A stretch of DNA of 64,000 nt from an uncultured Spirochaetota bacterium (GTDB taxonomy: Bacteria; Spirochaetota; Spirochaetia; SZUA-6; Fen-1364), in the NCBI GenBank assembly GCA_963820525.1, contig CAWGAA010000001.1:2080001-2144000 (forward strand), given 5' to 3'. The notes under the pieces were generated by a model. It worked only from the letters and a program-made list of their open reading frames with translations. It did no database searches and was not told where the DNA came from. Shown here piece by piece: positions 5,230 through 39,223 of this stretch (its first letter is position 1; each line of letters begins with the position of its first letter). The position numbers and the translations under genes are program-made.

Positions 5230-6445
5230 TAGTACATAGTCATTGAAGTTTACAATACATTGAACATATGCCATACTGTCTGATGGAGGGGAACAGTATG
5301 GGAGGCAAGAGATATCGGGTTCGGTTGCGAAAGAAAGAGCTGAAGCAGCTCAAAGCTCTTGTTCACAAGGGAGTGCAGAAAGCAAGAGTGATCAACCGCG
5401 CGCGCATACTCCTCATGGCCGATGAGAGCATTGGAGGGGAGCACAAAAGCGACGGGGAGATTTCGAAGATCCTTGCAATCTGCCTGCGGATGGTGGCGGC
5501 GACGCGCGAGAAGTACTGGCGATTTGGGCTACGGCAGGCGCTGGGAGAGAAGCCTCGCTCGGGGCATCCTGCGAAGCTTAGCGGGAAAGGCGAGGCGATC
5601 CTGACCACGATAGCCTGCACGGATGCGCCGCAGGGACGCAGTCGGTGGACGCTGCGGCTGTTAGCGGACAAGTTGGTGGAGATGAAGGAAGTGAAGTCGA
5701 TCTCGCATGAGACGGTGCGAAGGACATTAAAAAAAACGACCTCAAGCCGTGGCAGAAGAAGCAGTGGTGCCTTGGGCAGATAACGGGGGAGTATCTGGCG
5801 CGGATGGAAGACATCCTGGAAGTCTACGAACGGGCCTACAATCCTCGCTTTCCCGTGATCTGCTTCGATGAGCGCCCGTATCAGCTTCTTCATGGGTTGG
5901 CGGAGGAGCTGGCGATGAAACCCGGCCGCGTCGCGAGGGTGGATTACCAGTATCAGAGGCGAGGGACCTGCTGCCTGCTGGCGGTCGTGGAACCTCGGGG
6001 CGGCAGACGGAGGGTGGAAGTGCACCGTCATCGGGGCAAGCGAGAGTATGCCTCCTTCATGAGAAGACTGGCCGCCCAGTGGTACCCGCAGGCTGAGCGG
6101 ATCATCCTGATCCAGGACAACCTGAACACCCACGGCCCCGGGTCGTTCTACGAGTTCTATCCCGCCAATGAGGCCAGAGCTCTGGCGAAGCGCTTTGAGA
6201 TCCACTTCACACCGAAGAAGGCTAGCTGGCTGAACATGGTGGAGATCGAGCTGTCGGTACTTTCGAAGCAGTGTTTCGGGGGACGGATAGCTACCGTCTC
6301 TGAACTGAAACGGCAGGTCAGGGGGTGGGAAAGACGCCGCAACAAGGACCAGGCAAAGATCAGCTGGCGATTCACCACAGAGAGAGCACGCGACAAGCTT
6401 CAAAGGCACTACCAAGCTATTGTGAACTAGATGGACGAGGTACTA
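5230..6445 (+). mobile_element. IS630-family insertion sequence
   Basis: Imperfect ~29-bp terminal IRs (ctagtacatagtc...tacaata versus reverse complement ctagtacctcgtc...cacaata); CTAG target with TA duplication; removing it restores the host ORF. Confidence 0.9.
5298..6430 (+). CDS. IS630 transposase, two ORFs joined by a probable programmed -1 frameshift
   Basis: HTH ORF (RWTLRLLA..ISHETVRRTLKK) plus DDE ORF (CFDERP, QDNLNTH, SWLNMVEIELS); A-run at 5729-5736. Confidence 0.9.
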
Positions 6446-7284
6446 GGTGAACAACGCAGTATTTCTGCCAGGATTTAAGCACCGAGTCGCTGTATGCGGG
6501 AAGATCCCAATAATCGATTCTCTTGTTATTCTGATATCCAGGATCCATCCCACAATAGAGGCAATCCTCATTGAAGAAGTATCCTGAAGTGAAAGGCTTC
6601 ATAGGCTTGAGATATATTCTTTTATACATATTGATGAACCACTCCATTGCTTCCAGATTCATCGAGTCAAAAGCAGGAAGCTTATTGGAAGATCCAAGAG
6701 ACCAGACGGTTGCCGGAACGATCGATCCATCTCGAGTCAATGAATACGCGCGGTATTTCGCGGGGAAGGTATCGTTATTAAAGGCGGGGATGTATTTCTG
6801 AAGGCCCGCGGACGTTAGCCATAGATCTATGGTACTCTTTTTAAACACTTCTGCAACCGCTATGCATGCTGAAATATCCTCAGGATGAAAATAGATCGGA
6901 CCATGTTCGACACCGGATACAGGGTGTTTTTTCAAGATATCCGTAAGCTGGTAGGCTTCCGAGGCAGTCGATATTGCCCCAAAGCTCGAGGTGTAGTAAA
7001 CACTAACTTCCTGCAGGAAATAATATCCTTTAATGAGTTTCTGTTGGTACTACGTTTCGTCATACTGCGGTTCTTCGTGTTTCAGGGTGTTGCACGAAAC
7101 TATCAATAACCATGAGACGAGAGAGACACTACGGATAATATGAGTTTTATTCATAAGAAAACCCATCCTCTCAGCTCCTATGCATGCAAGAACGTCTCGC
7201 CGAAAAAATCGGATCAGCTTCATCAATATGGCTATACCCAACATGCACAACATGTTATTATAGCTACAGCTTGTCGGGTAATTG

Positions 7285-7671
7285 TTAGCTCTCCGGAGCC
7301 CGCTTACCGTGGATACGCGGGGTTGGCGTCTTTCTCGCGGGGGACGGTAGCTTTTTAAGAAGGCGATCGGTGACGCGCAACGACATCCTCTCCATTTGAG
7401 CGATGATTCTGTCCAGTTCGCGGCCGGTGGCAACCCAGACGGCGAGAAGGTCGGCCTGTTCGCGCGTCAGGCGGACTGTGACGGTTTTTCCATCCACCTT
7501 GCGGGTCCACTGGTAGTAGGGACCGTGAAGGCGGGGCGGAGAAGCTTGGCAGGCGCAGCCGGGCTTGCCGCAGGCCATGAAGCGTTTCAGCAAGGTGCCA
7601 CGGCGGAAATAGCCGACTCGGCTGAGGGCGCGCTGGAGCTGCTGGTAGTTTTGCGGAAGATCGGTTTTCAT
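7285..7671 (-). CDS. DUF6788-like small basic Cys/His protein carried inside the IS
   Basis: RRGTL...CGKPGCACQ...HGPYYQWTRKVDGKTVTVRL motif; ATG at 7671. Confidence 0.75.
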   Translation of the reverse strand: MKTDLPQNYQQLQRALSRVGYFRRGTLLKRFMACGKPGCACQASPPRLHGPYYQWTRKVDGKTVTVRLTREQADLLAVWVATGRELDRIIAQMERMSLRVTDRLLKKLPSPARKTPTPRIHGKRAPES

Positions 7672-7682
7672 AGAAATATATC

Positions 7683-7710
7683 TTGACAGAAAACTGTCTA
7701 CAGTTATAAT
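7683..7710 (+). promoter_or_regulatory. Sigma70-like promoter for the transposase, with an operator-like palindrome
   Basis: TTGACA-16 nt-TATAAT; palindrome aactgt-ct-acagtt at 7692-7705. Confidence 0.6.
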
Positions 7711-8912
7711 ACTGTTAGATATGTTGCCCGTCAAGCTTCCCCGGCGTTGGTTTTTCTCCCGGATCCTCGCTTCGATGTGCGTGTGCGTCTTTCTCGGCCT
7801 GGGCATCTTGATCTTCTCCAGCGCCCCCTCCATGGCAGCCGCCGATAGAGCAATCGTTCCCCAGGAGGTTCGTCGTCCATGCAAACCACTTCTGCCAGTG
7901 CCAAGCGCCAACCCGCTCTGATTCCCAGGTCTATGCGCCCGACCATCTCCATCGCGGAGGACCACAGGCTGGTCCAAATGACCGACACCCTGGACTGGAC
8001 AGAAATGGAGGAGCAAGCCCAGCAGATACGATCCGCCAAGCTCAAGAACGCCGCTGGGCGGCCGCCGCACCTGCGCGCCTTGCTGGGAGCTATGCTGCTG
8101 ATGGCCACCCGAAAGCTGACATACCGGGAGGCCGAGGACTTGATCTGCTACTACGCCCCAGCGCGCTACTTGTGCGGGCTGACCGAAACGGAGTGGACCC
8201 CGGACTTCACCACCATCCAGGACTTCACCGAACTGATGGGCGAGCAGGGGATCAAGCTCATCAATCAATGCGTGGTGCAAATGGCGGTGAAACAAAAGTT
8301 GGCAGATCCCAAGACACTGGTGGCCGACACCACAGCGCAGGAAGCGGCGATCCCCTATCCCAACGAGATGGGGCTCATGGCCGGCTTTCTGACCTCGGTG
8401 GCTGCCGCAACCCGAAAAGTTGGCCGAGCGCTGAAGGGATTCGTGCAGGAGACGGTGAGTCAATTCGAGGCGGCCAAGAAGAAGGGGCGAGAGTACCGCC
8501 TGTTCGCCAAGACCAAGGAGAGCAAGGATCGGGTGATGGGGCAGATGATCGCCATCGTCAAGAAGCTCAACGAGCATCTGAGCAAGGCGCTGGGCGCCCC
8601 TGCCGCACAGTGGGAAAAGCTACGCAAGCATGCAATTGTGGCCAAAAGCAAGCTGGTTCAGTTGCAGGAAACGATGAGCAAACTGATCCCGCAGATCCGC
8701 TACTGGATTCGCACGGGCTGCGTGGCCAGCGGCAAGATCATCAGCCTGCATATCCCGCAGCTCTACAGCATCGTACGCGGCAAAGTGGGCAAATCGGTGG
8801 AGTTTGGGCTGAGCTGGGGCATCAGGCGACTGGCGGGGGGTACCTGCTGGCCACGCTGGCCCCGAATCGCCGCGAGTTACAGGACACGAAGTTCGCGGTG
8901 CGAGCGGTCAAA

Positions 8913-10836
8913 CCCATCTTCGACACTTTGAAAAATGAAATGTTTACCCTATAAGGAATTAGAAGACACGAAAATTCTGTTGGCACTACAGATCAACTTC
9001 CTCCGTGGTAGCTCTTATTCGCGAACCGTCTGCGGCACTGCGACACCCGCGGCCTGCAATACTGTGTGGCACACCCCCCGCAGGTCGGTGCGCAGATATA
9101 GCTTTTTGCCATGCATTTCCACTTCCACCTCCTGCAGTGCTCGAAGGTCCCTATTGATATCCGCCCACTCCAGCTTGTCCCCGTGCTTCTCAAGTCTAGT
9201 TTCCAGCTCTTTTCGTAGAACAAGGGCGAGGAAACTGCAGAACACGTGGCCGCGGATCGTGTCGTCAACTTTATGATAGATCGGGCGGGTCTCCAGAAGG
9301 CTCTTGGCCGAACGGAATATCGATTCCACCATCCACAGCTGCTTGTACTTCAGTGCCACATCCGCGGCGGAAAATGCGGTGTTGGTGCGAAGCACCCACA
9401 TGCCGTCGAAGAGTGCCTCCTCGGAGAGCTTGGCCTCGTCGACGGTGAAGTGCTCCTTTCCCGCGGACTTCAGGTATCGCCTGTAGCCCTTGTTGCCCAC
9501 GAGACTCTTGTCCCCGCTTTTGAGCTTCTCTTTCAAAGACTCCACGATGGCCTTTCTGTCCGCGGCATCCTTTCGGGCCTGATCCTCGTTGTAACACACG
9601 ATGTAACGCCTATCCCCCACCCACTGCTCCCGCACCGATAGGGGGGAGGGATCCCCTGCCTTCTTCTTCTCTCCTGTGACTACTTGGAACTTCTCAGAGG
9701 AAGGAAGCACTTCATCGCGTACCGTCTTGTCCTTGTGCATGCGCGCTCCCAGGATGTAGGACATGCCAAGCTCATCAGTTTCAAGTTTCTCGATCGTCTC
9801 TGCGCTTATCATCCCGCGGTCTGCCACCACGCACACCGAAGCGATGGCGAAGCGGCTCTTCAGTCGCTGGACCACAGGGATGAGAGAACTGACATCGGTA
9901 AGATTGCCTGGCCACAGCTCGCAGCAAATCGGCCGCCCAGTGCCGTCCAGCACCGCGCCGACCACCATCTGTTTCAGGTCGGGTCTGTGGTCCTTGCTGT
10001 GCCCGTACTGTCCCAGGCTTTCTCCCCCTTGCCCCTCGAAGTACAGGCTCGTGGTGTCGAAGAACACCAGCTCCAACTCGCTGAACAGATCGCGGTTACG
10101 GCGAAAAAGCTCCTCTTCGATGAGGTCACTTTCGGCATCGCAGGCTTCGCGCATCATGGCCGAGCTGGATGCTCTGTTCTCCCAGCCAGCCCATGGCGCG
10201 GTAGAGGTGATGAAGCTCGATTCCCTCTGTCCCGCTGATCTGGAAATCCTCTTTCCAGCGCTCTGCCGCGCGGTCGCTTCCCGGATCGAAGAGGCGGTGC
10301 AGCACGGTGAGGAAGATCGCCCGTTCCAAGGAGAAGCGCCATGAGCGAGCGGCCACTTGGCCCTTTATCGCCTCTTTGATCCCCAACTGCTGCCACAATC
10401 GGTCGAAGAGAAGGGCGGGACCGATGGACAGTGTGCGGTGCGCTTGGATGGTGCCCTCGCGGTGAGCATCGATGATCGTTCGAATCGAGGAGAACTTCGC
10501 CAGCGATCGGGTGAGGGCATCGATCTTGCCTGATGCGGTGAGTGCATCCAGTTGGCCGAGGGTGGTGAGGACACGTTGTTTGACCTTTTTGCCCTCACGC
10601 TTGCTTTCAACGATCTGAAGGTACTTGTATCCGTGCGAGTTCTTGATGCGGACGAACATTGCCTGCCCCCCCTCTACGGATACTACCATGAAGATGGCAT
10701 CTATGCAAGTATTTTCTTCATAAATTGCCAATTCCGTGGCACTACATAAAGTGGTCCGGTTGTAAAAAAACCTTCAAATTCCCTGCAAATTCGAGGGGTA
10801 CGGCTTCCTGGAGACGCTCAAAGTGTCGAAGATGGG
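8913..10836 (-). mobile_element. IS1634-family element, copy 1
   Basis: IR cccatcttcgacactttg at both ends; 5-bp TSD tcaaa (8908-8912 and 10837-10841). Confidence 0.95.
9015..10659 (-). pseudogene. IS1634 transposase with a +1 frameshift near 10128
   Basis: Near-identical to 11743..13386 but reads aagTgacctc instead of aaggacctc. Confidence 0.85.
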
Positions 10837-11405
10837 TCAAAGACCACATCGCGCTCTTTGGCAAGGCGCCGCTGGCTTATGCCTACGACCGTGGTGGATA
10901 CAGCGCGGAGAATGTCTCCACCTTGAAGAAGTTGGGGGTCAAGGATGTGGGACTGGCCCCCCGTGGACGTACGCAGTGGTCGGTAAGCGGGCCGGTGCGC
11001 GACCGGCTGGTCAGAGAGAGGGCAATGGTGGAGGCGGGAATCGGCACCATCAAGAGCCCGAGATACGGGTTCAATCGTCCAGCTGCTCGTTCGGAGGCCA
11101 TGATGGGAGCGTGTGGGCAGCGCGCTGTGTTGGGATTCAACACCAACAAGCTGATCCGCGAACTTGCCGGGCGAAAGGGGATGACGCTGAACGGCTAACG
11201 GAATACGGGACGCCTGGTCACGAGACTGACAGTGCACCAGCGGGGTACGCACACAAGACACACAGCGCACCGGAAGGCGCGACATAGGTCCGCGGCCCGT
11301 CGAACACCGAGCCAACGGGCGCCTGAATTACCCGACAAACTGTAGCTAATATAAAACCCATCGAATGCAATTCAAGCTTATGTCGCGGTAAATCCCCGAA
11401 TCATT

Positions 11406-11554
11406 GCCTATAACGTCCCGCCAGTATGCGACGTGGGCTGAGGCCCAACAAGGGCCGAAGCCCATGTGGCGGAGCGGCGCGCTGCAGCGCCGCGGAGTCC
11501 GAGGCGCCCGTCAGGGCGCCGATGCACATTACGGGCTGTTGTGGGCCGTTGCAC
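11406..11554 (-). repeat. attC-like recombination site 1
   Basis: tataac...gccagtatgc...cattacgggc-t-gttgtggg imperfect palindrome; near-identical to site 2 starting exactly at AAC. Confidence 0.75.
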
Positions 11555-11566
11555 CTCTCACTATTG

Positions 11567-13488
11567 CCCATCTTCGACACTTTGAGCGTCTCCAGGAAGC
11601 CGTACCCCTCGAATTTGCAGGGAATTTGAAGGTTTTTTTACAACCGGACCGCTTTATGTAGTGCCACGGAATTGGCAGTTTATGAAGAAAATACTTGCAT
11701 AGATGACCTCTTCATGGTAGTATCCGTAGAGGGGGGCAGGCAATGTTCGTCCGCATCAAGAACTCGCACGGATACAAGTACCTTCAGATCGTTGAAAGCA
11801 AGCGTGAGGGCAAAAAGGTCAAACAACGTGTCCTCACCACCCTCGGCCAACTGGATGCACTCACCGCATCAGGCAAGATCGATGCCCTCACCCGATCGCT
11901 GGCGAAGTTCTCCTCGATTCGAACGATCATCGATGCTCACCGCGAGGGCACCATCCAAGCGCACCGCACACTGTCCATCGGTCCCGCCCTTCTCTTCGAC
12001 CGATTGTGGCAGCAGTTGGGGATCAAAGAGGCGATAAAGGGCCAAGTGGCCGCTCGCTCATGGCGCTTCTCCCTGGAACGGGCGATCTTCCTCACCGTGC
12101 TGCACCGCCTCTTCGATCCGGGAAGCGACCGCGCGGCAGAGCGCTGGAAAGAGGATTTCCAGATCAGCGGGACAGAAGGCATCGAACTTCATCACCTCTA
12201 CCGCGCCATGGGCTGGCTGGGAGAACAGAGCATCCAGCTCGGCCATGATGCGCGAAGCCTGCGATGCCGAAAGGACCTCATCGAAGAGGAGCTTTTTCGC
12301 CGTAACCGCGATCTGTTCAGCGAGTTGGAGCTGGTGTTCTTCGACACCACGAGCCTGTACTTCGAGGGGCAAGGGGGAGAAAGCCTGGGACAGTACGGGC
12401 ACAGCAAGGACCACAGACCCGACCTGAAACAGATGGTGGTCGGCGCGGTGCTGGACGGGGCAGGGCGGCCGATTTGCTGCGAGCTGTGGCCGGGCAATCT
12501 TACCGATGTCAGTTCTCTCATCCCTGTGGTCCAGCGACTGAAGAGCCGCTTCGCAATCGCTTCGGTGTGCGTGGTGGCAGACCGCGGGATGATAAGCGCA
12601 GAGACGATCGAGAAACTTGAAACTGATGAGCTTGGCATGTCCTACATCCTGGGAGCGCGCATGCACAAGGACAAGACGGTACGCGATGAAGTGCTTCCTT
12701 CCTCTGAGAAGTTCCAAGTAGTCACAGGAGAGAAGAAGAAGGCAGGGGATCCCTCCCCCCTATCGGTGCGGGAGCAGTGGGTGGGGGATAGGCGTTACAT
12801 CGTGTGTTACAACGAGGATCAGGCCCGAAAGGATGCCGCGGACAGAAAGGCCATCGTGGAGTCTTTGAAAGAGAAGCTCAAAAGCGGGGACAAGAGTCTC
12901 GTGGGCAACAAGGGCTACAGGCGATACCTGAAGTCCGCGGGAAAGGAGCACTTCACCGTCGACGAGGCCAAGCTCTCCGAGGAGGCACTCTTCGACGGCA
13001 TGTGGGTGCTTCGCACCAACACCGCATTTTCCGCCGCGGATGTGGCACTGAAGTACAAGCAGCTGTGGATGGTGGAATCGATATTCCGTTCGGCCAAGAG
13101 CCTTCTGGAGACCCGCCCTATCTATCACAAAGTTGACGACACCATCCGGGGGCACGTGTTCTGTAGTTTCCTCGCCTTGGTTCTTCGAAAAGAGCTGGAA
13201 ACCAGACTTGAGAAGCAAGGGGACAAGCTGGAGTGGGCGGATATCAATAGGGACCTTCGAGCACTTCAGGAAGTGGAAGTAGAAATGCATGGCAAAAAGC
13301 TGTATCTGCGCACCGACCTGCGGGGGGTGTGCCACACGGTATTGCAGGCCGCGGGTGTCGCAGTGCCGCAGACGGTTCGCGAATAAGAGCTACCACGGAG
13401 GAAGTTGATCTGTAGTGCCAACAGAATTTTCGTGTCTTCTAATTCCTTATAGGGTAAACATTTTATTTTTCAAAGTGTCGAAGATGGG
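11567..13488 (+). mobile_element. IS1634-family element, copy 2 (no TSD)
   Basis: Same IRs as copy 1; flanks tattg and cttta do not match. Confidence 0.95.
11743..13386 (+). CDS. IS1634 transposase (intact)
   Basis: 547 aa; YLQIVES, FFDTTSLYFEG, GHSKDHRPDLKQ, VADRGM, VESIFRSAKS and RPIYH. Confidence 0.95.
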   Translation: MFVRIKNSHGYKYLQIVESKREGKKVKQRVLTTLGQLDALTASGKIDALTRSLAKFSSIRTIIDAHREGTIQAHRTLSIGPALLFDRLWQQLGIKEAIKGQVAARSWRFSLERAIFLTVLHRLFDPGSDRAAERWKEDFQISGTEGIELHHLYRAMGWLGEQSIQLGHDARSLRCRKDLIEEELFRRNRDLFSELELVFFDTTSLYFEGQGGESLGQYGHSKDHRPDLKQMVVGAVLDGAGRPICCELWPGNLTDVSSLIPVVQRLKSRFAIASVCVVADRGMISAETIEKLETDELGMSYILGARMHKDKTVRDEVLPSSEKFQVVTGEKKKAGDPSPLSVREQWVGDRRYIVCYNEDQARKDAADRKAIVESLKEKLKSGDKSLVGNKGYRRYLKSAGKEHFTVDEAKLSEEALFDGMWVLRTNTAFSAADVALKYKQLWMVESIFRSAKSLLETRPIYHKVDDTIRGHVFCSFLALVLRKELETRLEKQGDKLEWADINRDLRALQEVEVEMHGKKLYLRTDLRGVCHTVLQAAGVAVPQTVRE

Positions 13489-13538
13489 CTTTATTCAGAA
13501 TGGACAAAGAGACATATAATGATCTGAATAGTGACCAC

Positions 13539-13572
13539 TTGACAATAATGATGAAAGTATATACATTGTATA
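13539..13572 (+). promoter_or_regulatory. TA promoter with an overlapping palindromic operator
   Basis: TTGACA-17 nt-TACATT; palindrome tatacattgtata at 13560-13572. Confidence 0.65.
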
Positions 13573-13573
13573 G

Positions 13574-13864
13574 GTGACATATATACGCTTCACTTGGGAC
13601 CAAAAGAAAAGCAAAGCGAATTATGAGAAGCACGGTATATCTTTCGAAGAAGCCAAATCAATTTTCTACGACCCGGCTGCACGTCAAATTTATGATCCAG
13701 ATCATTCAGCTGATGAAGATAGATTCATCATGCTCGGAATGAGTCATAAGTTAAGGGTCCTTATAGTTTGTCATTGTTATAGGGAGAAGGAAGAAAAAAT
13801 CAGGATTATATCTGCACGCAAGGCAACTGCTGTTGAAACACGTCTTTATGAGAGGAGGAGATAA
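13574..13864 (+). CDS. brnT: BrnT-family toxin (RNase)
   Basis: FTWDQKKSKANYEKHGISFEEA, DPDHS..EDRF and IRIISARKAT. Confidence 0.9.
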   Translation: MTYIRFTWDQKKSKANYEKHGISFEEAKSIFYDPAARQIYDPDHSADEDRFIMLGMSHKLRVLIVCHCYREKEEKIRIISARKATAVETRLYERRR

Positions 13865-13865
13865 T

Positions 13866-14087
13866 ATGAGAAAGGAATATAACTTCGATAAATCTATAAG
13901 AAATCCGTATTATCGTAAGCTGAAAAAGCCCATATCGATCCGGCTTGACGCAGAGACAATCGAGTATTTTAAAAAATTGTCCGAAGAGACGAATATCCCG
14001 TATCAAAATTTGATAAATAGCTATTTATCAGAATGCGCTTCAAAGAAGCTGAGACCGACACTGCATTGGATGAAACGAGGCGCATAG
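13866..14087 (+). CDS. brnA: BrnA/CopG-like antitoxin
   Basis: MRKEYNF..RNPY..KKPISIRLD...YFK..IPYQNLINSYL; GGAGG RBS. Confidence 0.85.
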   Translation: MRKEYNFDKSIRNPYYRKLKKPISIRLDAETIEYFKKLSEETNIPYQNLINSYLSECASKKLRPTLHWMKRGA

Positions 14088-14103
14088 AGATTTAAGAAAG
14101 CTG

Positions 14104-14260
14104 GCGCAATGTCACACAACGTCCCGCCAGTATGCGACGTGGGCTGAGGCCCAACAAGGGCCGAAGCCCATGTGGCGGAGCGGCGCGCTGCAGCGCCGCG
14201 GAGCCCGAGGCGCCCGCAAGGGCGCCGAAGAGCATTACTGGCTGTTGTGGGCCGTTGCAC
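14104..14260 (-). repeat. attC-like recombination site 2
   Basis: cacaac-gtccc-gccagtatgc...gcattactggc-t-gttgtg: paired R and L boxes with an unpaired spacer and one extra base. Confidence 0.8.
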
Positions 14261-14272
14261 CTCTCACTATTG

Positions 14273-16195
14273 CCCATCTTCGACACTTTGAGCGTCTCCA
14301 GGAAGCCGTACCCCTCGAATTTGCAGGGAATTTGAAGGTTTTTTTACAACCGGACCGCTTTATGTAGTGCCACCGAATTGGCAGTTTATGAAGAAAATGC
14401 TTGCATAGATGGCCTCTTCATGGTAGTATCCGTAGAGGGGGGGCAGGCAATGTTCGTCCGCATCAAGAACTCGCACGGATACAAGTACCTTCAGATCGTT
14501 GAAAGCAAGCGTGAGGGCAAAAAGGTCAAACAACGTGTCCTCACCACCCTCGGCCAACTGGATGCACTCACCGCATCAGGCAAGATCGATGCCCTCACCC
14601 GATCGCTGGCGAAGTTCTCCTCGATTCGAACGATCATCGATGCTCACCGCGAGGGCACCATCCAAGCGCACCGCACACTGTCCATCGGTCCCGCCCTTCT
14701 CTTCGACCGATTGTGGCAGCAGTTGGGGATCAAAGAGGCGATAAAGGGCCAAGTGGCCGCTCGCCCATGGCGCTTCTCCCTGGAACGGGCGATCTTCCTC
14801 ACCGTGCTGCACCGCCTCTTCGATCCGGGAAGCGACCGCGCAGCAGAGCGCTGGAAAGAGGATTTCCAGATCAGCGGGACAGAGGGAATCGAGCTTCATC
14901 ACCTCTACCGCGCCATGGGCTGGCTGGGAGAACAGAGCATCCAGCTCGGCCATGATGCGCGAAGCCTGCGATGCCGAAAGGACCTCATCGAAGAGGAGCT
15001 TTTTCGCCGTAACCGCGATCTGTTCAGCGAGTTGGAGCTGGTGTTCTTCGACACCACGAGCCTGTACTTCGAGGGGCAAGGGGGAGAAAGCCTGGGACAG
15101 TACGGGCACAGCAAGGACCACAGACCCGACCTGAAACAGATGGTGGTCGGCGCGGTGCTGGACGGCGCTGGGCGGCCGATCTGCTGCGAGCTGTGGCCAG
15201 GGAACCTCACCGATGTCACCTCCCTTATCCCTGTGGTCCAGCGACTGAAGAGCCGCTTCGCAATCGCTTCGGTGTGCGTGGTGGCAGACCGCGGGATGAT
15301 AAGCGCAGAGACGATCGAGAAACTTGAAACTGATGAGCTTGGCATGTCCTACATCCTGGGAGCGCGCATGCACAAGGACAAGACGGTACGCGATGAAGTG
15401 CTTCCTTCCTCTGAGAAGTTCCAAGTAGTCACAGGAGAGAAGAAGAAGCCTGGGGATCCCTCCCCCCTATCGGTGCGGGAGCAGTGGGTGGGGGATAGGC
15501 GTTACGTGGTCTGTTACAACGAGGATCAGGCCCGAAAGGATGCCGCGGACAGAAAGGCCATCGTGGAGTCTTTGAAAGAGAAGCTCAAAAGCGGGGACAA
15601 GAGCCTCGTGGGCAATAAGGGCTACAGGCGCTACCTGAAGTCCGCGGGAAAGGAGCACTTCACCGTCGACGAGGCGAAGCTCGCGAAGGAGCAGCTGTTC
15701 GACGGCATGTGGGTGCTGCGCACCAATACCGCGTTTGCCGCCGCGGATGTGGCACTGAAGTACAAGCAGCTGTGGATGGTGGAATCGATATTCCGTTCAG
15801 CCAAGAGCCTTCTGGAGACCCGCCCGATCTATCACAAAGTTGACGACACTATCCGGGGGCATGTGTTCTGCAGTTTCCTCGCCCTTGTTCTACGAAAAGA
15901 GCTGGAAACGAGACTTGAGAAGCACGGGGACAAGCTGGAGTGGGCGGATATCAATAGGGACCTTCGAGCACTTCAGGAGGTGGAAGTGGAAATGCATGGC
16001 AAGAAGCTGTATCTGCGCACCGACCTGCGCGGGGTATGCCACACGGTATTGCAGGCCGCGGGTGTCGCAGTGCCGCAGACGGTTCGCGAATAAGAGCTAC
16101 CACGGAGGAAGTTGATCTGTAGTGCCAACAGAATTTCCGTGTCTTCTAATTCCTTATAGGGTAAACATTTCATTTTTCAAAGTGTCGAAGATGGG
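14273..16195 (+). mobile_element. IS1634-family element, copy 3
   Basis: Same IRs; TSD tattg (14268-14272 and 16196-16200). Confidence 0.95.
14450..16093 (+). CDS. IS1634 transposase (intact)
   Basis: Near-identical to copy 2. Confidence 0.95.
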   Translation: MFVRIKNSHGYKYLQIVESKREGKKVKQRVLTTLGQLDALTASGKIDALTRSLAKFSSIRTIIDAHREGTIQAHRTLSIGPALLFDRLWQQLGIKEAIKGQVAARPWRFSLERAIFLTVLHRLFDPGSDRAAERWKEDFQISGTEGIELHHLYRAMGWLGEQSIQLGHDARSLRCRKDLIEEELFRRNRDLFSELELVFFDTTSLYFEGQGGESLGQYGHSKDHRPDLKQMVVGAVLDGAGRPICCELWPGNLTDVTSLIPVVQRLKSRFAIASVCVVADRGMISAETIEKLETDELGMSYILGARMHKDKTVRDEVLPSSEKFQVVTGEKKKPGDPSPLSVREQWVGDRRYVVCYNEDQARKDAADRKAIVESLKEKLKSGDKSLVGNKGYRRYLKSAGKEHFTVDEAKLAKEQLFDGMWVLRTNTAFAAADVALKYKQLWMVESIFRSAKSLLETRPIYHKVDDTIRGHVFCSFLALVLRKELETRLEKHGDKLEWADINRDLRALQEVEVEMHGKKLYLRTDLRGVCHTVLQAAGVAVPQTVRE

Positions 16196-16219
16196 TATTG
16201 CAAATCTTTATAGCCCTTA

Positions 16220-16792
16220 TCAAGGAAGCTCAGGAAGACCTATCCGTGATAAGTAATTGCAGAACCTCAACGAAAGCTCTTCTCTGAATAGTTCTGATAC
16301 AGAAGCTATATAGCAGATTTTATGTATTAGGATGAATGATTCAAATGGTAAAGTCAAATAATGCTTGAAATCAAGAACTAGATCTGGAATCGGCAAGTCA
16401 CCTGTTTGACCTTTTATAAAGTGATATCGTTGATCCCGGTTTTGCTTAACATAACCCCATCTTTCAGAATTGAGTCGATCTTGCTTAATATTAAAAGCAT
16501 CTACGAGATGATCTCCAGACCTAAAGCTATCACCGAGAAAGCACGGAGCTATAAGAATATTCGGCAGGTATTGATTATTTGTTATGATACCTGCAGGTTG
16601 TCCATTTCGATCTGAATTGCTTTGCTCGAGATCGCAGTCTTGGCTCAACACAATCATGTAAGGATAGGTTATTTGAAGGACAGCGCTATTTACATCAATT
16701 ACATCGAGTTTCGCGTCACGTAATATGTCACCTTGGCATATCCGAGACTTGTCATGTCGTGTGAACCGCGTTAATACGTTACTTTTCCACAC
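16220..16792 (-). CDS. Hypothetical protein with QGDI...VLSQDCDL motif
   Basis: 190-aa AT-rich ORF overlapping the upstream ORF; C-terminal LSRIGLP. Confidence 0.75.
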   Translation of the reverse strand: MWKSNVLTRFTRHDKSRICQGDILRDAKLDVIDVNSAVLQITYPYMIVLSQDCDLEQSNSDRNGQPAGIITNNQYLPNILIAPCFLGDSFRSGDHLVDAFNIKQDRLNSERWGYVKQNRDQRYHFIKGQTGDLPIPDLVLDFKHYLTLPFESFILIHKICYIASVSELFREELSLRFCNYLSRIGLPELP

Positions 16793-16961
16793 GGCCTATA
16801 ATTTTCTTTGTCACTTTCACAGTTGGATAGTGCGAACTATCAATAACATGGGATGGTTGCATTTTAGCACTTGAAGAGGGTTTTGTTGTTGGTGCTTTTG
16901 AATTTGTTTTAGATTCAGAGAAGTACTCCGAACTAGATGATGAACTAGTCTTTGCCGGCAT
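16779..16961 (-). CDS. Small Ser/Lys-rich hypothetical protein
   Basis: 60-aa ORF overlapping both neighbours, consistent with translational coupling. Confidence 0.5.
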   Translation of the reverse strand: MPAKTSSSSSSEYFSESKTNSKAPTTKPSSSAKMQPSHVIDSSHYPTVKVTKKIIGRVEK

Positions 16962-17718
16962 TTGTTACCCCCATTAGTGTCCGCAAAGGTTCTTTTATAG
17001 AATTCTCAAAGAGCTCCTGAATCGACCTATTAAATTTGCGTACTTGAGCAGGAATATCAGACGAAACATCTTGCGAGTAGCAATCATAATCAAGAATATA
17101 TTGACGGCGAGTTATTTTGGCTGGGAATTCCGGATTGAATATTCCATAATTGCAAACTATTTGATATTCATCTTTGTTTAAAGCATATTGGCCCATTGTT
17201 CTTGAAAGATATTGAATGTTCTCTCCAAAACCGCTATTAGAGCATGTTAGAAAGTCCGAGATATATTCTGCCCAATCGAGCGGATTGCCATCTTTCAGAT
17301 TTATTGTATTTATATATCTGAGCCCAATCCTTGTATAATCAGGCTTTGGGTATGCCGAAGCAAAAGCTTGAACAATAATTTGAATTCTTTCCAAGTATTC
17401 TTCAAGCGATGTATAATGGAAGTCTTCAATTGCGAGAAAAGAGTAATTCAGTGTTAGTTTGAATCTTTCAGATTTGTCAAGGATGATCCAGCTTGTTATT
17501 GGAGCGGCGATACTCCCCTGTGGAGTACCATCCTTGATCTCTGCCCTATATTCGAATCCTTTTTCCTCTTGTAAAACGGGCATCTGAATGCGAATTGACT
17601 CATGGAATTGAGGAGAAATTTTCTCCCTAAGAACAAGGATAGGATTGTAGTCTATACGAAAAATGACATTTGAGAGAAAATTATTACTGTACTTGATTTT
17701 ATTGAGATCAATATGCAT
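16945..17718 (-). CDS. TIGR04255-family protein
   Basis: Y..NFLSNVIFRIDY, Y(T)SLEEY, TRIGLRYINTI and YILDYDC. Confidence 0.8.
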   Translation of the reverse strand: MHIDLNKIKYSNNFLSNVIFRIDYNPILVLREKISPQFHESIRIQMPVLQEEKGFEYRAEIKDGTPQGSIAAPITSWIILDKSERFKLTLNYSFLAIEDFHYTSLEEYLERIQIIVQAFASAYPKPDYTRIGLRYINTINLKDGNPLDWAEYISDFLTCSNSGFGENIQYLSRTMGQYALNKDEYQIVCNYGIFNPEFPAKITRRQYILDYDCYSQDVSSDIPAQVRKFNRSIQELFENSIKEPLRTLMGVTNAGKD

Positions 17719-17874
17719 TGAAATAGTCTCTCTGTTCCGCTGCAAGTTGTTTCTTCAAATAAAATGATCAATAAATGATAGATCATCAAGCGGTCCGTAT
17801 TTCCTTTTCGAGTCAATAGTTATCTGATTATGTTTTTGCATATGCCACTTTTCAGTATGTTATTCAATGTGCCT

Positions 17875-18080
17875 GTGCAATGGCCCACAACGTAAAGGGT
17901 TTACGACATGCCCCGTCCCGAAGGGCTGGCACAGGGGTTGCCCCCGCAAAACATAGACAAGAGTGTACCACACATCTTAGAGGACCGTAAGAAGATTTGA
18001 TCTGCAAGCCCTGTGCCAGAGGGGCATGTGGCGAAGCCCGGAGCGACCGGAGGGAGCGGAGCGTAAACCCTATGTTGAAT
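17875..18080 (-). repeat. attC-like site 3, a long branched hairpin downstream of the IS91-like transposase
   Basis: Stems caac/gttg, agggtttacg/cgtaaaccct, acatgcccc/ggggcatgt and tggcacaggg/ccctgtgcca; shares catgtggcgRag with sites 1 and 2. Confidence 0.75.
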
Positions 18081-18110
18081 GAAGTCGCTCCGCCCGCGCT
18101 ATGGGTTTTA

Positions 18111-19263
18111 TTAGGCGCTGTTCCAATAACTATTAGAGGCCTCTTCCGGCGGAAGTTCAATGATTTGTATATTCACACTATTGCAGCGCGGACATCGTTT
18201 TCCAATGATCTCGGGCGCTTCCAAGAAAAAATCATACGATCGCTGTTGAGATTCTAGATCGATGCATAACAAACGACGGATGTATTTCAGATTTTCATTT
18301 TTGTGCCCGTTGCTCAAGAGGCCGTAAAATCGTATACGCTTGAATCCTTCCGGCAGCACATGCAGGAGAAATCTTCTCATGAACTCGGAGGAGCCAAGTG
18401 TCATTACCTTTTTCCGGTTTTTATCCCTGTAGTCCTTCCAGATAAAGCTTACATTTCCGCCGGTGAAATTCAAAATCCGTTTGTTGCTGATCGCTACCCG
18501 ATGCGTATATCGCCCTATATATTTCAGTACACGTAACGGATCGGAAAACGGCTTTTTGGCATAGACGACCCACCTTCTTGCATAACACGTATCCAACAGC
18601 TTTGCAAACTCGGCTGCCTACTCTGTCTTAAGCGACTTGCCAAAGAAACTCAACTCTTTTGCTGCATATGCCTGTTTCAAATAATGCAGGTATTTACCTC
18701 TGAACAATCGATTGAGAATGTGTATCGAGATAAAGAAATTGTTCCTGCTTTCAATCCATGCGGATTTATCCCGGCTCAATCCCCCTCCGGTAACAATGCA
18801 GTGCAGATGTGGATGGTCAAGTAAGTTTTGGCTCCAGGTGTGGAGAATGGCGATAAACCCGATCTTCGCGCCGAGATTCTTCGGGTTTCCCGCAGCTTCT
18901 TGAAGAGTTTCGTTTGCGGCGCGAAAGAGAATGTCGTAGAGCACTCTTTTGTTCTGGAGAATAAGGGAATTCAATACCGCCGGGACGGTGAAGACGATAT
19001 GGAAATATTTTATGGGCAGAAGCTCTTGTGTCCGCTCGTAAACCCATTGCGCCTGCTTGCTCGCCTGGCATTTGGGGCAATGCCGGTTCCTGCATGAATT
19101 ATAGGATATCTGTTCATACCCGCATTCATGGCAAACAAATTTATGGCCGCCCAATTTCGGACCGCGGCAGTTTATGATTGCGTTTACGACTTTCCACTGA
19201 TCATAACTGATGCCTTCCAGTAACTGAGTGCTTTGTCTGAAAACATCGGCGACTTTTATTATG
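18111..19263 (-). pseudogene. IS91-family (Y2 HUH) transposase with an in-frame TAG and a damaged start
   Basis: YNSCRNRHCPKCQ zinc-binding motif, YFHIVFTVP, LHTWSQNL..HPHLHC, YIGRYTHRVAIS and FLLHVLP.GFKRIRFYG; TAG at 18618-18620 is in frame with the 3' ORF. Confidence 0.9.
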
Positions 19264-19265
19264 TC

Positions 19266-19388
19266 GGTCCGCTGCGCTGTCCCGTCTGCGGAAACAGGAT
19301 GTCCGTGATCGCCCTCATGCGCTATCCCGCAGAGAACCGGACCATCATCGCCCGACCGTCTCGTCACCACCCCTACTCAGCGCCCTGA
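19266..19388 (+). pseudogene. Probable C-terminal remnant of a second, oppositely oriented IS91/ISCR-type transposase
   Basis: Translates as PLRCPVCGNRMSVIALMRYPAENRTII, resembling the PLxCPxCGxxMxxIA tails of these transposases. Confidence 0.4.
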
Positions 19389-19416
19389 CAGTCAGGTAAC
19401 CTGCCGGGTTCAGCAG

Positions 19417-19827
19417 CTATCTCTTTTTCAGCGCTGTCTCCACTGCCTTGAGGAACGCTCGGGGGGTCCATGTCGCGCCGCCCACAACGTCCACGTCCGG
19501 GGACTGCTTCTCGATAACCTTCAGGGCAAGCGGCGCAAGGTATTCTCTGATAGTTGTTGGAGAGACAACCGTGATCCGTTGGATTTTCCCTTGAGCAACA
19601 TCAACCTGAACCTTCACTCGTTTGTTGCCTACGAAGGTACCGAAGGGCGGCACGATCTTGTACTCTCCAATGTATGTTCCATCCGGAATTCCGCTGAGAT
19701 CAACTTGGCCGACACGGTAGTCCTGCTTTGGAATCCCAAACGACATCGTTGCCGCCACGATGATGATGACCATCCCGCCAACTATTGAAAGGAGTACGAT
19801 CAAGACGATCCGTCCGCGCTTCTTCAT
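19417..19827 (-). CDS. Membrane-anchored FMN-binding domain protein
   Basis: N-terminal TM; DGTYIGEY...VKVQVDV..G.I...VIEKQSPDVDVVGGATWT..FLKAVETAL. Confidence 0.85.
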   Translation of the reverse strand: MKKRGRIVLIVLLSIVGGMVIIIVAATMSFGIPKQDYRVGQVDLSGIPDGTYIGEYKIVPPFGTFVGNKRVKVQVDVAQGKIQRITVVSPTTIREYLAPLALKVIEKQSPDVDVVGGATWTPRAFLKAVETALKKR

Positions 19828-31636: not shown

Positions 31637-33916
31637 TCACCGCTTGTTCTTCGACATCTCCTCCCGCGCGATCCCGACGATCTCGCGGGTCTTGCCGTCC
31701 TCTCCCGTCATGACGGAGCCGGAAAAGAGCATCGGCACTTCGGTCCCCTCCTTAGTGCGGTACTTCATCTCGTAGTTGGCGACGGACCCTGCGGCGAGCA
31801 GGCCAACGATGCCTTCCTCGGTGAACAGGACCTCCCCCCTTCCCACCACCTCCCTCATGTGCCGGCCGACGAGCTCCTCCTCCCGGTAGCCCAGCCGCCT
31901 GCAGGTGGCCCTGTTCACGCTCTTGATGGTGCCGCCCAGGTCCAGGATCACAAGCGTGTCTCCCATGTCGTTGAGGCTGCCGAGGATGTTCTCATTGTAC
32001 GTCTTCACGCTCACCAGGTTCACGATCGTTTTGTACAGAAGGATGCCCTGGGAGATGATGGCCCGGATCGTGCGCAAGAGCTCAAGCTCGTGCGCGTCAA
32101 CGTTCTGACTCCCCGTTCGGTTGGAGAGGATGAGCATCCCCAGCGTGTCGCGGCCGCCGCGGAGAGGCAGAAACACGAAGGAAGAAATAAGGCTCTTCAC
32201 CCCCGCGTCGATGTCGGGCCTATTGGCGAGGATCCTGTTGATGTCTTCCATGGGGATGGGGAGAACTTCCCCGGGGCTCTTGGATTCCGCCGTGAGCTGC
32301 AGATGCAGCTCGCATGCCACGCCGGCCGCCGCTTCGCTCACCGGGTCCAGCGAATACTTCTTGAAGCTTCCCCCCTTCTCGAAGGACACAAGCGCGCACG
32401 CATCGCAGGTGAGGAAGCTCTTGAGTATCTGCACGATGGAGGTCATGACGGAGTCGAAATCGGCGGAGCTTCGAAACCGCTCGCTCAGGATGAACAGAAG
32501 CGTCTGCTCGGACAGCCTCCTTTCCATTTCACGGAAGATGATGCTCTTCTCGATTGCCGTGGCAGTCTGGTTGGCTATTGTATTGAGGAACCGCAGGTCC
32601 TCGTTGTTGTACATTGTGCCGGCAAGCTTCGGTCCCATAATCAGGGTTCCCATGAGCTTGTCTTTCAACAACACCGGCACCACCAGGGAGATGTCGGCAC
32701 CTTTGAAGAGGTGGTGGTTGTCCTCGAGGATGGGGCGGGCGCAGGGATCCATGAGGGCCTCTTCCCTCACCAGCGGCTTGCCCTCCTTACTGAGCCAGCG
32801 CGCCAGGGTGCTCTGCTCCCCGATGCCCAGATCCGTGGAGGGTCCGGGAGCGGAGCCGGCGGACTTGCGCACAGTGAAGGCGTTTCTCTGTTCATCGAGC
32901 AGCGCGATGGAAAGCCCCACGGGTTTGACGGTTTCCGCCACGGCATTGCCGACGAGATCGAGGATCCGCTCGGTGTCGTAGAGGTGGGTTACGTCGCGGC
33001 TGAAGGACTGGGTCGCTTTCTGGTAGTCCGACTTCTCCCGGAAAAATATCTTGTCCAAAGCATTCTGCAGAAGGTTTCGAAGCGGAAGGAAGATCAGGCC
33101 GAGGATGAGGATCACGATGATTCCATATGACTGTCCCGTGTACCCGATGCTCTGCTTGAGGACGCTCTCCATGACGAAGACGACCCCGAGGTAGACCGCG
33201 ACGAGGGCCAGCGTGAGGATCGAGTAGAAAAGGCTTCGCGCCAGAAAAAAACGGATGTCGAGCAGCCGGTGGCGTACCACCGCGTACCCGATGATGAGCG
33301 CGCTCACGAGGTTGAAGGAGATGTCCACGGGGTAATCGCGCAGCCCTGTAAGGTTCGAGCTCAGCCCGATCACCATGACACTGGCGCCGAGCAGCACGTA
33401 GATGATGCGGTTCCTCTGCACGGGGGACTTTTCCCGCACGAACGCCCTGACCAGGTTGTAGATCCCGCAGAGCCAGAAGAAGTACGAGCCCGCGATTATG
33501 ACGAAGACCCTGGGATTGTTGAACACGGGGACGAAGTAGCCGCTGCGGCCGAACTCTACTTCCTGAAATTGCAAGCTGAGGAAACCGCCGGCCAGGATGA
33601 CCGCGCAGCTGGCGTATGACAGGATGACCAGCGCCCTCTGTCTCTTGATATTCAGAAACGAACGGGAAAAAAGGAAGAAGAATGCGTTGATCGTGCCTGA
33701 GCAGGCCAGAAGGAGGTTGTACAACACCAATGCCGTCTGGGCCGCTTTGGTAAAGTTGACAATAAGGGACGTTAACTGCAAGCAGAGAATCGCCAGGAGA
33801 TATGTGGAGAAGAAGATCCGCACACCACGCTCCGCCCTGCTGCGCAGGGTAAGCAGAGCCAGAACAAGGTAGCTCAGAAGCGCGACAAGCTTGACGATCG
33901 TGGATAGTACCAGCAT
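31637..33916 (-). CDS. 7TM-GAF-PAS sensor, truncated paralogue lacking the kinase domain (possible pseudogene)
   Basis: Collinear with 34048..36972 but ends IVGIAR-EEMSKNKR*. Confidence 0.8.
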   Translation of the reverse strand: MLVLSTIVKLVALLSYLVLALLTLRSRAERGVRIFFSTYLLAILCLQLTSLIVNFTKAAQTALVLYNLLLACSGTINAFFFLFSRSFLNIKRQRALVILSYASCAVILAGGFLSLQFQEVEFGRSGYFVPVFNNPRVFVIIAGSYFFWLCGIYNLVRAFVREKSPVQRNRIIYVLLGASVMVIGLSSNLTGLRDYPVDISFNLVSALIIGYAVVRHRLLDIRFFLARSLFYSILTLALVAVYLGVVFVMESVLKQSIGYTGQSYGIIVILILGLIFLPLRNLLQNALDKIFFREKSDYQKATQSFSRDVTHLYDTERILDLVGNAVAETVKPVGLSIALLDEQRNAFTVRKSAGSAPGPSTDLGIGEQSTLARWLSKEGKPLVREEALMDPCARPILEDNHHLFKGADISLVVPVLLKDKLMGTLIMGPKLAGTMYNNEDLRFLNTIANQTATAIEKSIIFREMERRLSEQTLLFILSERFRSSADFDSVMTSIVQILKSFLTCDACALVSFEKGGSFKKYSLDPVSEAAAGVACELHLQLTAESKSPGEVLPIPMEDINRILANRPDIDAGVKSLISSFVFLPLRGGRDTLGMLILSNRTGSQNVDAHELELLRTIRAIISQGILLYKTIVNLVSVKTYNENILGSLNDMGDTLVILDLGGTIKSVNRATCRRLGYREEELVGRHMREVVGRGEVLFTEEGIVGLLAAGSVANYEMKYRTKEGTEVPMLFSGSVMTGEDGKTREIVGIAREEMSKNKR

Positions 33917-33922
33917 CTGTCC

Positions 33923-34020
33923 TCAGTTCTTCCAGGAACGTATAAGTGCGCAAGGTCCCTCCGGACGCTTGCCTCTCGCCATAGTATCTACGAAACATTC
34001 CCTTGGAAAGCAGAGAGATG
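33923..34020 (-). pseudogene. 3' remnant of a second GH3-family gene
   Basis: ISLLSKGMFRRYYGERQASG and SWKN* match the GH3 C-terminus VSILSKGTFHRYYEERQAAG...SWKI*; similar junction to the next ATG. Confidence 0.75.
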
Positions 34021-34047
34021 CGCCACACCCCGGGCAGCGTATCGGCA

Positions 34048-38605: not shown

Positions 38606-39223
38606 TCAATTTATATCCTTATCTCCTTGCGATTTCAAAGGAAAACGATACGTTTGCATGCACCTGGCGATGCTCGACGGCGTCGGAATGAGAAAGGGCA
38701 CCGTGCGGCGGTATGCGTCGTATGCGCTTCCGAAAATGCGCGGGAAAAGGATCACGTCCTCCACGGCCACCAGGAGGGCATCCGCGACGGTCCACAGGGG
38801 GACCGCCAGGAGCAGGAGACGTGAGCCGCTCAACGCCGCGATGGACAGGAGAAAAAGGGGAAGCCAGAGGACCCCCGGATGTCGACAGAGCGCGTACGTG
38901 CCCGTGGTGACCACCCGCCTCTCCGCTCTCCCTTCGGCGCGGGACGGGAAAACGGCAATCTCCAGGAAAAGAGAGGATGCGAGGAGGAAGAGGAATACAG
39001 CCGAGCAAATCCCTCCCGCCGCCCGCAGGAGAACCGGCGGGGCGAAGCGGTCGCCGTTCAACAGCAGCGCCGCAAGGGCGGCGAGCAGGAGCGCCGCGGA
39101 GCCCGCGATCGAGCCCACGCGAAGCGCCCGCAGCCCGCGCCAATCGGCCCAATCGGAGAGGAGAAAGAGGGGAAAGCTCGCCGTGCCCGCGATGAGAGCG
39201 ATCACGCCTTGAGGTCCCGACAT
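38606..39223 (-). CDS. ICMT/PEMT-like membrane methyltransferase
   Basis: Multiple TMs; VVTTGTYALCRHPG...ED....FG.AY.AYRRTVP.LIP. Confidence 0.85.
   Translation of the reverse strand: MSGPQGVIALIAGTASFPLFLLSDWADWRGLRALRVGSIAGSAALLLAALAALLLNGDRFAPPVLLRAAGGICSAVFLFLLASSLFLEIAVFPSRAEGRAERRVVTTGTYALCRHPGVLWLPLFLLSIAALSGSRLLLLAVPLWTVADALLVAVEDVILFPRIFGSAYDAYRRTVPFLIPTPSSIARCMQTYRFPLKSQGDKDIN

Follow-up and report, generated by a model that had tools for sequence, protein, structure and literature searches.

How did an IS91-family transposase come to stand at the head of an array of hairpin-bounded gene blocks, and which enzyme moves such blocks? These questions are raised by a locus in an uncultured Spirochaetota bacterium whose genome (G000) is assembled as 5.05 Mb in four contigs. 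The window that we analyzed is a stretch of 64,000 nucleotides of this genome (C1:2080001–2144000). We are fairly confident that its region from 11355 to 19255 is a degraded piece of an integron-type cassette array, read on the minus strand and headed by an insertion sequence (IS) of the IS91 family. On that strand the array consists of a dead copy of the IS91-family element (19255 to 17891), a two-gene cassette with attC-type site 2 (17890 to 14120), a cassette with the BrnT/BrnA toxin-antitoxin pair and attC-type site 1 (14119 to 11414), and a 59-nucleotide stub of one more cassette. It is broken up by two copies of an IS1634-family element, each 12 nucleotides upstream of an attC, and by an outer IS5-like element.

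An earlier note on this DNA had offered two readings: a cluster of attC sites lacking integron-integrases (CALIN) whose first cassette is a rolling-circle transposase, or a cassette capture system run by the IS91-like protein. It had stated that no tyrosine recombinase is present in the window, and we find none there among the 12 matches to PF00589 in a six-frame search of the genome or the 14 matches to TIGR02249. The nearest IntI is about 125 kb away. With its co-oriented attC-type sites and no integrase nearby, the locus has the form of a CALIN. The note had missed the three IS1634-family copies, the outer IS5-like element and the pseudogene state of the transposase; the features that it did describe are all present.

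A family of structured attachment sites

Sites 1, 2 and 3 each have AAC at the left end and GTT at the right end (plus strand), share the motif catgtggcgRag and lie at gene-block boundaries. All three hairpins had been noticed from the letters of the window, between AT-rich blocks, and each folds as single-stranded DNA (ssDNA) with negative z scores on both strands (minus/plus: site 3, -5.1/-6.5; site 2, -5.0/-4.8; site 1, -3.0/-4.6). The GC content is 0.69–0.71 in the sites, 0.38 in the cassette bodies and about 0.61 in the flanking genes. An nhmmer search found 19 sites of the type of sites 1 and 2 in the genome, in four places and with one orientation per place. A covariance model of our own, built from 18 members of the family (R1, distinct from that of IntegronFinder), recognized further sites in an array on contig C3 and none in the two canonical IntI loci. 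The family has about 25 attC-type members in the genome, confined to three arrays. Within the window R1 finds three sites, all on the minus strand (11409–11552, 14115–14258 and 17952–18088), and one partial match of 27 model positions at 39079–39105 (E 0.031). The three co-oriented sites are spaced 2.7 and 3.7 kb apart, distances that are inflated by the 1.9-kb IS insertions.

The consensus fold of 18 aligned sites has 26 base pairs, and 94.3% of the alignment cells at these positions pair. Changes on both sides are seen in 18 of the 26 pairs, compared with 8.6 ± 1.7 in shuffled alignments (none of 500 as high) and three to four when the pairing partners were slid. In the L stem, eight of ten pairs have changed on both sides; the AAC and GTT are nearly invariant. 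On the bottom strand a G follows the AAC, as in most attC sites. Set against the attC features given in the accessible part of PMC2727003, the inverse cores R''/R', the L stem and the branched top are all present. Sites 1 and 2 both belong to this structured, array-restricted family. The family also includes a 78-nucleotide minimal site at C3:857128–857205 (L026:17128–17205), which has the same R boxes and L stem without the branched top and an ssDNA z score of -9.

Crossover points and cassette boundaries

The crossover falls at G|TT on the minus strand of the window (11414|11413, 14120|14119 and 17891|17890), because identity among six copies of the IS91-family unit, and between sites 1 and 2, stops at GTT. 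The earlier note had placed it there from the two sites, and the copy boundaries bear this out. Sites 1 and 2 are identical from the AAC onward (11412 and 14118), and their identity extends over 2.08 kb, since each is adjoined by a copy of one 1.92-kb IS1634-family element; what is shared is the site together with the IS, not the site alone. We also considered the plus strand as the cassette sense, with the BrnTA genes on it and a GTTGAAT that fits GTTRRRY. This was rejected, since the copy boundaries put the crossover on the minus strand.

The ends of the block from 14244 to 17891 had been described as complementary, and 14244–14260 does pair with 17875–17891 at 16 of 17 positions. The block is one cassette (17890–14120), whose start is complementary to the R'' extension of site 2, the site belonging to it, as expected for a cassette that once circularized. 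Cassette boundaries lie at G|TT, and the first bases of each cassette are complementary to its own site on the R'' side.

The IS91-family unit and its terminal hairpin

A BLAST search with 16197–19500 against the genome showed that site 3 and the transposase gene form a repeated unit, of which the window copy spans 17889–19255. Five more copies, about 95% identical, are found at C1:3095555–3097072 and, four of them, in C3:826–860 kb. The six copies agree up to ...CCCTTTACGTT and then diverge into differing sequences of the type RTRGGCCATTGC. The five other copies reach about 140 nucleotides past 19255 of the window and start with G|TTGAACAAAATCGCTCC (G|TTGAAC). Three of these starts immediately follow the GTT of a type 1/2 site, and two follow a common attI-like sequence, which adjoins a recombinase gene (C3) or its 13-codon remnant (C1); all five readable junctions are at attC or attI-like crossover points.

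The unit is 1.52 kb long and has a single gene; no recombinase gene is found in the five intact copies. Its start is complementary to its own inner repeat at 15 of 18 positions. The start, G|TTGAACAAAATCGCTCCGCGATGG, aligns with the left ends of classical two-gene relatives (alignment A3: G015, G021 and other loci), and the 3' region aligns with classical right ends in the CCCATAG box, the inner repeat GGAGCGACTTCATTCAAC, the hairpin and CG|TT (alignment A4). In its five intact copies the unit is a complete single-gene IS91-family element, whose own left end and right-end hairpin stand in the places of a cassette start and an attC. Because both ends of the unit are homologous to the classical termini of this IS91 subgroup, site 3 is the terminal hairpin of the element itself and not an acquired attC. 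The idea of an IS91 transposase as first cassette with an attC-like site of its own holds for the first position in the array, but not for the origin of the site.

The intact transposase scores 420 bits with NF033538 (cut-off 125) and also matches PF04986 and PF14319. Residues H167, H169 and H171 of the HUH region and the tyrosines Y265 and Y269 are invariant across 31 aligned sequences, and in five of the six copies the protein is intact with its catalytic residues. The window copy is a pseudogene with one TAG stop, in which residues 1–18 and about 140 nucleotides upstream are missing. Its stop codon (18111–18113) lies 20 nucleotides from site 3. A 42-nucleotide module of the terminal hairpin (window 18023–18064) is 97.6% identical to part of an ordinary attC-type site at C3:843856–843897, which suggests that hairpin parts were exchanged between the IS91-family unit and local array sites.

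At 19242–19385 (plus strand) lies a 48-codon remnant of an open reading frame (ORF) that contains a CPVCG zinc ribbon and weakly resembles the C-terminal parts of IS91-family transposases. Over 47 amino acids (aa) it matches a contig C2 sequence at 47% identity, and several weaker matches lie on that contig. A Pfam search with this fragment gave only sub-threshold zinc-ribbon matches.

Relatives of the transposase

We collected 158 loci with homologues of the transposase (43–55% identical), of which 131 have at least 700 nucleotides of upstream flank. In 127 of these 131, a co-oriented tyrosine-recombinase gene immediately precedes the transposase gene. The partner recombinases are IntI-like (225 and 223 bits with NF040815, 191 and 194 bits with TIGR02249), and one of them is 33% identical to the IntI of G000 and has the C-terminus SPLD. 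The earlier suggestion that a partner recombinase had been lost near 19265 fits the relatives, which do have such a partner. It does not fit the five intact copies, which have no recombinase gene; the loss at 19255 amounts to about 140 nucleotides and 18 codons.

A CCCATA box follows the transposase gene in 101 of 129 loci. Among these 101 loci, an AAC with a hairpin is found in 39 and a full AAC-hairpin-GTT in 16, compared with 7 and 0 in controls placed inside the gene and 4.8 and 0.6 in shuffles. Comparison of copies in G015 and G021 gave the ends of the classical element as TTGTACGAAATCGCTTC... and ...CTCATAGAAACCTAAT; G015 (locus L049) is an uncultured Spirochaetota metagenome-assembled genome (MAG) and the closest named relative in the genome collection. 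The classical left end and the inner repeat that lies just before the terminal hairpin are complementary at all positions (18 of 18). Two classical copies (L110 and L113) have CGTTT at both ends. The left flank is CAAG in one of three relatives, and the junctions in G000 are CG|TT.

Sites recognized by R1 occur in just three of the 158 loci (L052, L083 and L147). One of the three, L147, is a metagenome contig of 2938 nucleotides that carries a two-gene IS91 element followed by 300 nucleotides, an attC, a cassette with a 253-aa ORF and a second attC; its sites are about 140 nucleotides long and score 25.6 and 17.9 bits with R1. Transposases that are 60–94% identical were found by protein search, many of them on contigs of 1.4–1.7 kb. 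A scan of genome contigs with a single protein found no close relatives, and alignment-based scans gave only those of 43–55% identity. Among 401 genomes sampled from the phylum, none other than G000 had an IS91 match at E≤1e-130.

Candidate recombinases

The largest array of the site family, on contig C3, is headed by a divergent IntI-like tyrosine recombinase of 265 aa (C3:825826–826623). It aligns end to end with the 323-aa IntI of the same genome (33% identity, 54 gap positions) and ends in IKSPL. The enzyme sits in an IntI-like setting but is not an IntI by the TIGR02249 definition. Its length of 265 aa is kept in relatives at 65–90% identity, in metagenomes and in spirochaete MAGs, and 8 of 92 genomes of the order have a homologue. 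Where flanking sequence is available, R1-positive sites lie upstream of the orthologue and divergent from it: seven in G001, two in G004 and one in G026. No IS91 match is found in these three loci. A canonical IntI is present in G001 and G004; none above the cut-off was found in G026, G083 and G025, which are 89%, 87% and 95% complete. At five loci with more distant homologues, R1 with its filters off found one clear site (L217) and otherwise weak matches; in four of the five, the relevant flank is only about 180 nucleotides to 2.1 kb long.

G000 also has a canonical integron (C1:682089–683324; L032:10000–20000), with a 411-aa IntI, its own shorter classical attC sites and a dense array. Many of its cassettes are about 390 nucleotides long and come from repeated families.

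Which enzyme placed the unit

A tyrosine recombinase acting at G|TT would have moved the cassettes, and probably the IS91-family unit too, in the form of folded single strands. The leading candidate would be the 265-aa enzyme at the head of the C3 array, with the two canonical IntI proteins of the genome as alternatives. The array in the window has no enzyme of its own and would now be acted on only in trans. As for the agent that placed the IS91-family unit, we lean somewhat toward a recombinase, hold the HUH transposase of the unit itself to be less probable, and consider it rather improbable that both took part. The recombinase route is favored because the five readable junctions all coincide with attC or attI crossovers, because the unit start has the 15-of-18 complementarity to its inner repeat, and because arrays without IS91 exist.

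If its own transposase had placed it, the unit would be an attC-homing IS and a parasite of the array: the protein would recognize a hairpin followed by CGTT, like that of its own end, and insert a rolling-circle copy there. The intact catalytic residues in five of six copies fit this proposal, as do the CGTT at both junctions of the unit and of the classical copies, and the 16 AAC-hairpin-GTT structures among the 101 loci with a box. However, a bare CGTT target would scatter copies genome-wide, yet no readable junction lies away from an attC or attI crossover point, and a recombinase acting on a folded circle would also explain that the unit start is complementary to the inner repeat as in cassettes. 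We regard such homing as possible but doubtful. Far less probable is the second reading of the earlier note, in which the IS91-like protein runs the whole array and all hairpins serve as its origin or termination signals. Sites 1 and 2 do have the geometry of an IS91 terminal hairpin (AAC, 1–2 nucleotides, stem...stem, 5–6 nucleotides, GTT), the 42-nucleotide module is common to site 3 and an attC, and IS91 hairpins score 24–41 bits with the model built from sites of the 1/2 type. Yet in G001 and G004 this site family accompanies the 265-aa recombinase at loci without an IS91 match, and in G004, which is 99% complete, the query used gave no match to IS91 at E≤1e-20. The CCCATAG box is absent from sites 1 and 2, and model-positive sites are rare among the homologue loci; for the array as a whole this reading is weak. 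That the hairpins are dispersed repeats of the repetitive extragenic palindromic (REP) type, unrelated to gene mobility, is scarcely credible. They are GC-rich, structured, repeated and intergenic; however, the search for more copies in the genome found them only in arrays, in one orientation per array and between AT-rich blocks, comparison of copies mapped an exact G|TT crossover, and the same cassette recurs in other metagenomes with the match ending at its boundary.

Several observations weigh against the reading as an integron-type array headed by the IS91-family unit. Canonical attC sites have extrahelical bases on the R''-L'' arm and an unpaired central spacer (PMC2727003). Here a bulged base on the R''-L'' arm is found in just 7 of the 18 sites (column 24 of alignment A2), and, unlike in classical attC sites, the spacers are asymmetric: 1–2 nucleotides separate the AAC from the stem on one arm, against about 5 on the other arm. 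The 265-aa enzyme falls below the cut-offs (201.6 against 220 for NF040815, 191 against 265 for TIGR02249) and is without the IntI-defining domain, positions 179–237 of TIGR02249 being unmatched. In the window the unit is without its 5' junction, so that the site at which it originally docked is unreadable. Two of the copies (C3a and C1b) have upstream sequence in common and encode the same transposase; the first position in all three arrays therefore does not represent three independent events. IS1634-family copy B has no target duplication, which is not fully explained. Recombination itself was not observed.

A further possibility, which we advance only tentatively, is that the joined ends of this IS91 subgroup work as an attC. 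In this scheme the element would be released by the HUH transposase as a single-stranded circle whose junction (inner repeat, hairpin and left end) folds like an attC, and an IntI-like tyrosine recombinase would insert the circle at the G|TT of an attC or attI. This recombinase would be the partner of the element itself in the two-gene forms and the 265-aa enzyme in G000. The 265-aa family would then run a second gene-capture system, with sites of 140 nucleotides, independent of the canonical integron.

Comparison with known systems

CALINs and sedentary chromosomal integron arrays (as defined in PMC4889954) resemble this locus in their co-oriented structured sites, AAC/GTT inverse cores and G|TT crossover, in cassettes that start with the complement of their own site, and in AT-rich cassettes that are mostly of unknown function and include a self-oriented toxin-antitoxin pair. 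Embedded insertion sequences are shared with the Vibrio cholerae array, as far as the available text of PMC11023631 describes it. In contrast to CALINs and sedentary integrons, the sites here are long (about 140 nucleotides), their top is branched and their spacers are unusually asymmetric. The IntI-defining domain is absent from the recombinase at the head of the parent array, and a separate canonical integron resides in the same genome.

IS91-type elements carry a target-like tetranucleotide at both ends, and their rolling-circle transposition adjoins a GTTC/CTTG target. Elements with names such as ISAzo26 presumably belong to the subgroup with an upstream recombinase gene. The unit described here shares with the IS91 family, including that subgroup, the HUH/two-tyrosine (Y2) transposase, and its left end, inner repeat, CCCATAG box and terminal hairpin are homologous to those of two-gene relatives (43–58% protein identity). 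In contrast to them, it does not carry a gene for a recombinase, and its hairpin, at about 190 nucleotides, is longer and contains the module common to local attC sites. Within cassette arrays, every readable copy is positioned at the crossover point of an attC or attI.

IS1111-attC elements target attC sites. The IS91-family unit is similar to these elements, and to the group IIC-attC introns, in being a mobile element at a fixed position of integron recombination sites. However, its enzyme is a HUH rolling-circle transposase, and it is inserted at the crossover itself and brings a mimic of the site, which leaves the array formally intact. The introns target attC sites according to the available portion of PMC7923331. 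Another IS91-like rolling-circle element tied to integrons is ISCR1 of complex class 1 integrons, which in the part of PMC8876359 at hand lies beyond the 3' conserved segment and mobilizes adjacent genes by read-through; in contrast to the unit here, it is not bounded by attC-type junctions.

Our literature search, which did not extend to subscription journals or to the texts of ISfinder and TnPedia, turned up neither an IS91 transposase described as a cassette nor IS91 elements described as attC-homing, and no paper describing the recombinase-bearing IS91 subgroup. Among the major routes of gene capture are integrons and IS91/ISCR elements; both operate through ssDNA, but they have been treated as mechanistically separate. 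If a recombinase inserts what the transposase excises, the two would meet in a hybrid transposition pathway, which would suggest how attC-like sites and IntI-like enzymes could have arisen or been borrowed. What the window itself contributes is a dead IS91-family copy, a clean mapping of the crossover, two ordinary cassettes and the IS-driven erosion of an orphan array.

Cassette genes, insertion sequences and flanking features

Coordinates of the features of the array and its surroundings are given in Table 1.

Table 1. Features of the cassette array and adjoining DNA (positions in the window)
Feature	Position	Strand	Remarks
AT-richer DNA left of the outer IS	6431–7259	-	GC 0.44; holds ORF 6417–6935 (-), no family match
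Outer IS5/ISNCY-like element	7260–11354	+	ends TAGCTACAG...CTGTAGCTA; 5 genome copies; transposase gene split by IS1634 copy A
IS1634-family copy A	8910–10836	-	TTGA target duplication; transposase frameshifted; nested in the outer IS5/ISNCY-like element
First 59 nucleotides of the next cassette	11355–11413	-	start TTATAGGCAATG...; severed by the outer IS
attC-type site 1, site of the BrnTA cassette	11412–11554	-	crossover G|TT at 11414|11413; covariance model 147.8 bits
IS1634-family copy B	11567–13491	+	547-aa transposase; no target duplication
BrnTA cassette body	13492–14119	-	GC 0.38; BrnT 13574–13864 and BrnA 13833–14087, both + strand
attC-type site 2, site of the TIGR04255 cassette	14118–14260	-	crossover G|TT at 14120|14119; R'' extension GTGCAACGGCCCACAAC at 14260–14244; 148.8 bits
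IS1634-family copy C	14273–16196	+	ATTG target duplication at 14269–14272 and 16197–16200
Two-gene cassette body	16197–17890	-	GC 0.38; start TTGTGGGCCATTGCAC at 17890; ORFs 16945–17745 (TIGR04255) and 16220–16792
Site 3, terminal hairpin of the IS91-family element	17889–18091	-	inner repeat GGAGCGACTTCATTCAAC before the hairpin; element end CCCTTTACG|TT at 17891|17890; 25.9 bits
CCCATAG box	18099–18105	-	kept downstream of the transposase gene in 101/129 homologue loci
IS91-family Y2 (HUH) transposase pseudogene	18111–19255	-	two ORFs (18111–18596; 18618 onward), one TAG stop, truncated at 19255
GC-rich fragment adjoining the truncation point	19256–19416	+	48-codon zinc-ribbon ORF remnant (CPVCG)

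The two adjacent small genes of the cassette next to site 1 form a BrnT/BrnA pair (BrnT, PF04365, 100.8 bits against a cut-off of 34.5; BrnA, PF14384, 31.1 bits against 26.1) and are reversed within their own cassette. In the two-gene cassette, ORF 16945–17745 encodes a TIGR04255 family protein (107 bits), and ORF 16220–16792 (190 aa) has no family match. PADLOC found nothing in the four cassette proteins.

The IS1634-family element is 1.92 kb long, with inverted repeats of 19 nucleotides and a 547-aa transposase (NF033559, 398.6 bits; cut-off 100). Three copies are present in the window and five elsewhere in the genome, one of which is interrupted. A 4-bp target duplication flanks six of the eight copies; it is lacking in copy B of the window and in a nested copy at C1:800699. 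For three of the eight copies, an attC-type site follows downstream, with its R'' end 12–30 nucleotides away (window 11553–11566 and 14259–14272; C1:3080617), and copies B and C of the window have identical positions relative to their sites. Their placement may reflect a preference for inserting locally, or else an event of recombination or deletion. A strictly attC-targeting element was considered and rejected, as five of the eight copies are elsewhere.

We compared contigs of four public runs over 13492–19500. The BrnTA cassette (13492–14121) shows no differences in runs X1, X2 and X4, which come from different studies, and the matches stop at 14121, two nucleotides off the crossover. The TIGR04255 cassette (16306–17712) is covered in X1 alone, the probable source run. 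The contigs, in which rare forms would not show, contain no circle junction of a cassette or of the IS91-family unit. One contig of X4 joins 14258 to 13492, with about 40 extra nucleotides, and looks like a form without the IS1634 copy.

The AT-richer DNA at 6431–7259 may be the continuation of the cassette that is interrupted at 11355. It is bordered by an IS630-like element (5268–6430, plus strand) with HTH_32 and DDE_3 ORFs, and at least four IS families are packed into the same 15-kb stretch. Farther along the window, two adjacent ORFs of 759 and 974 aa (31637–36972, minus strand) contain 300-nucleotide stretches that are 95% identical and 3056 nucleotides apart; they look like tandem paralogues.

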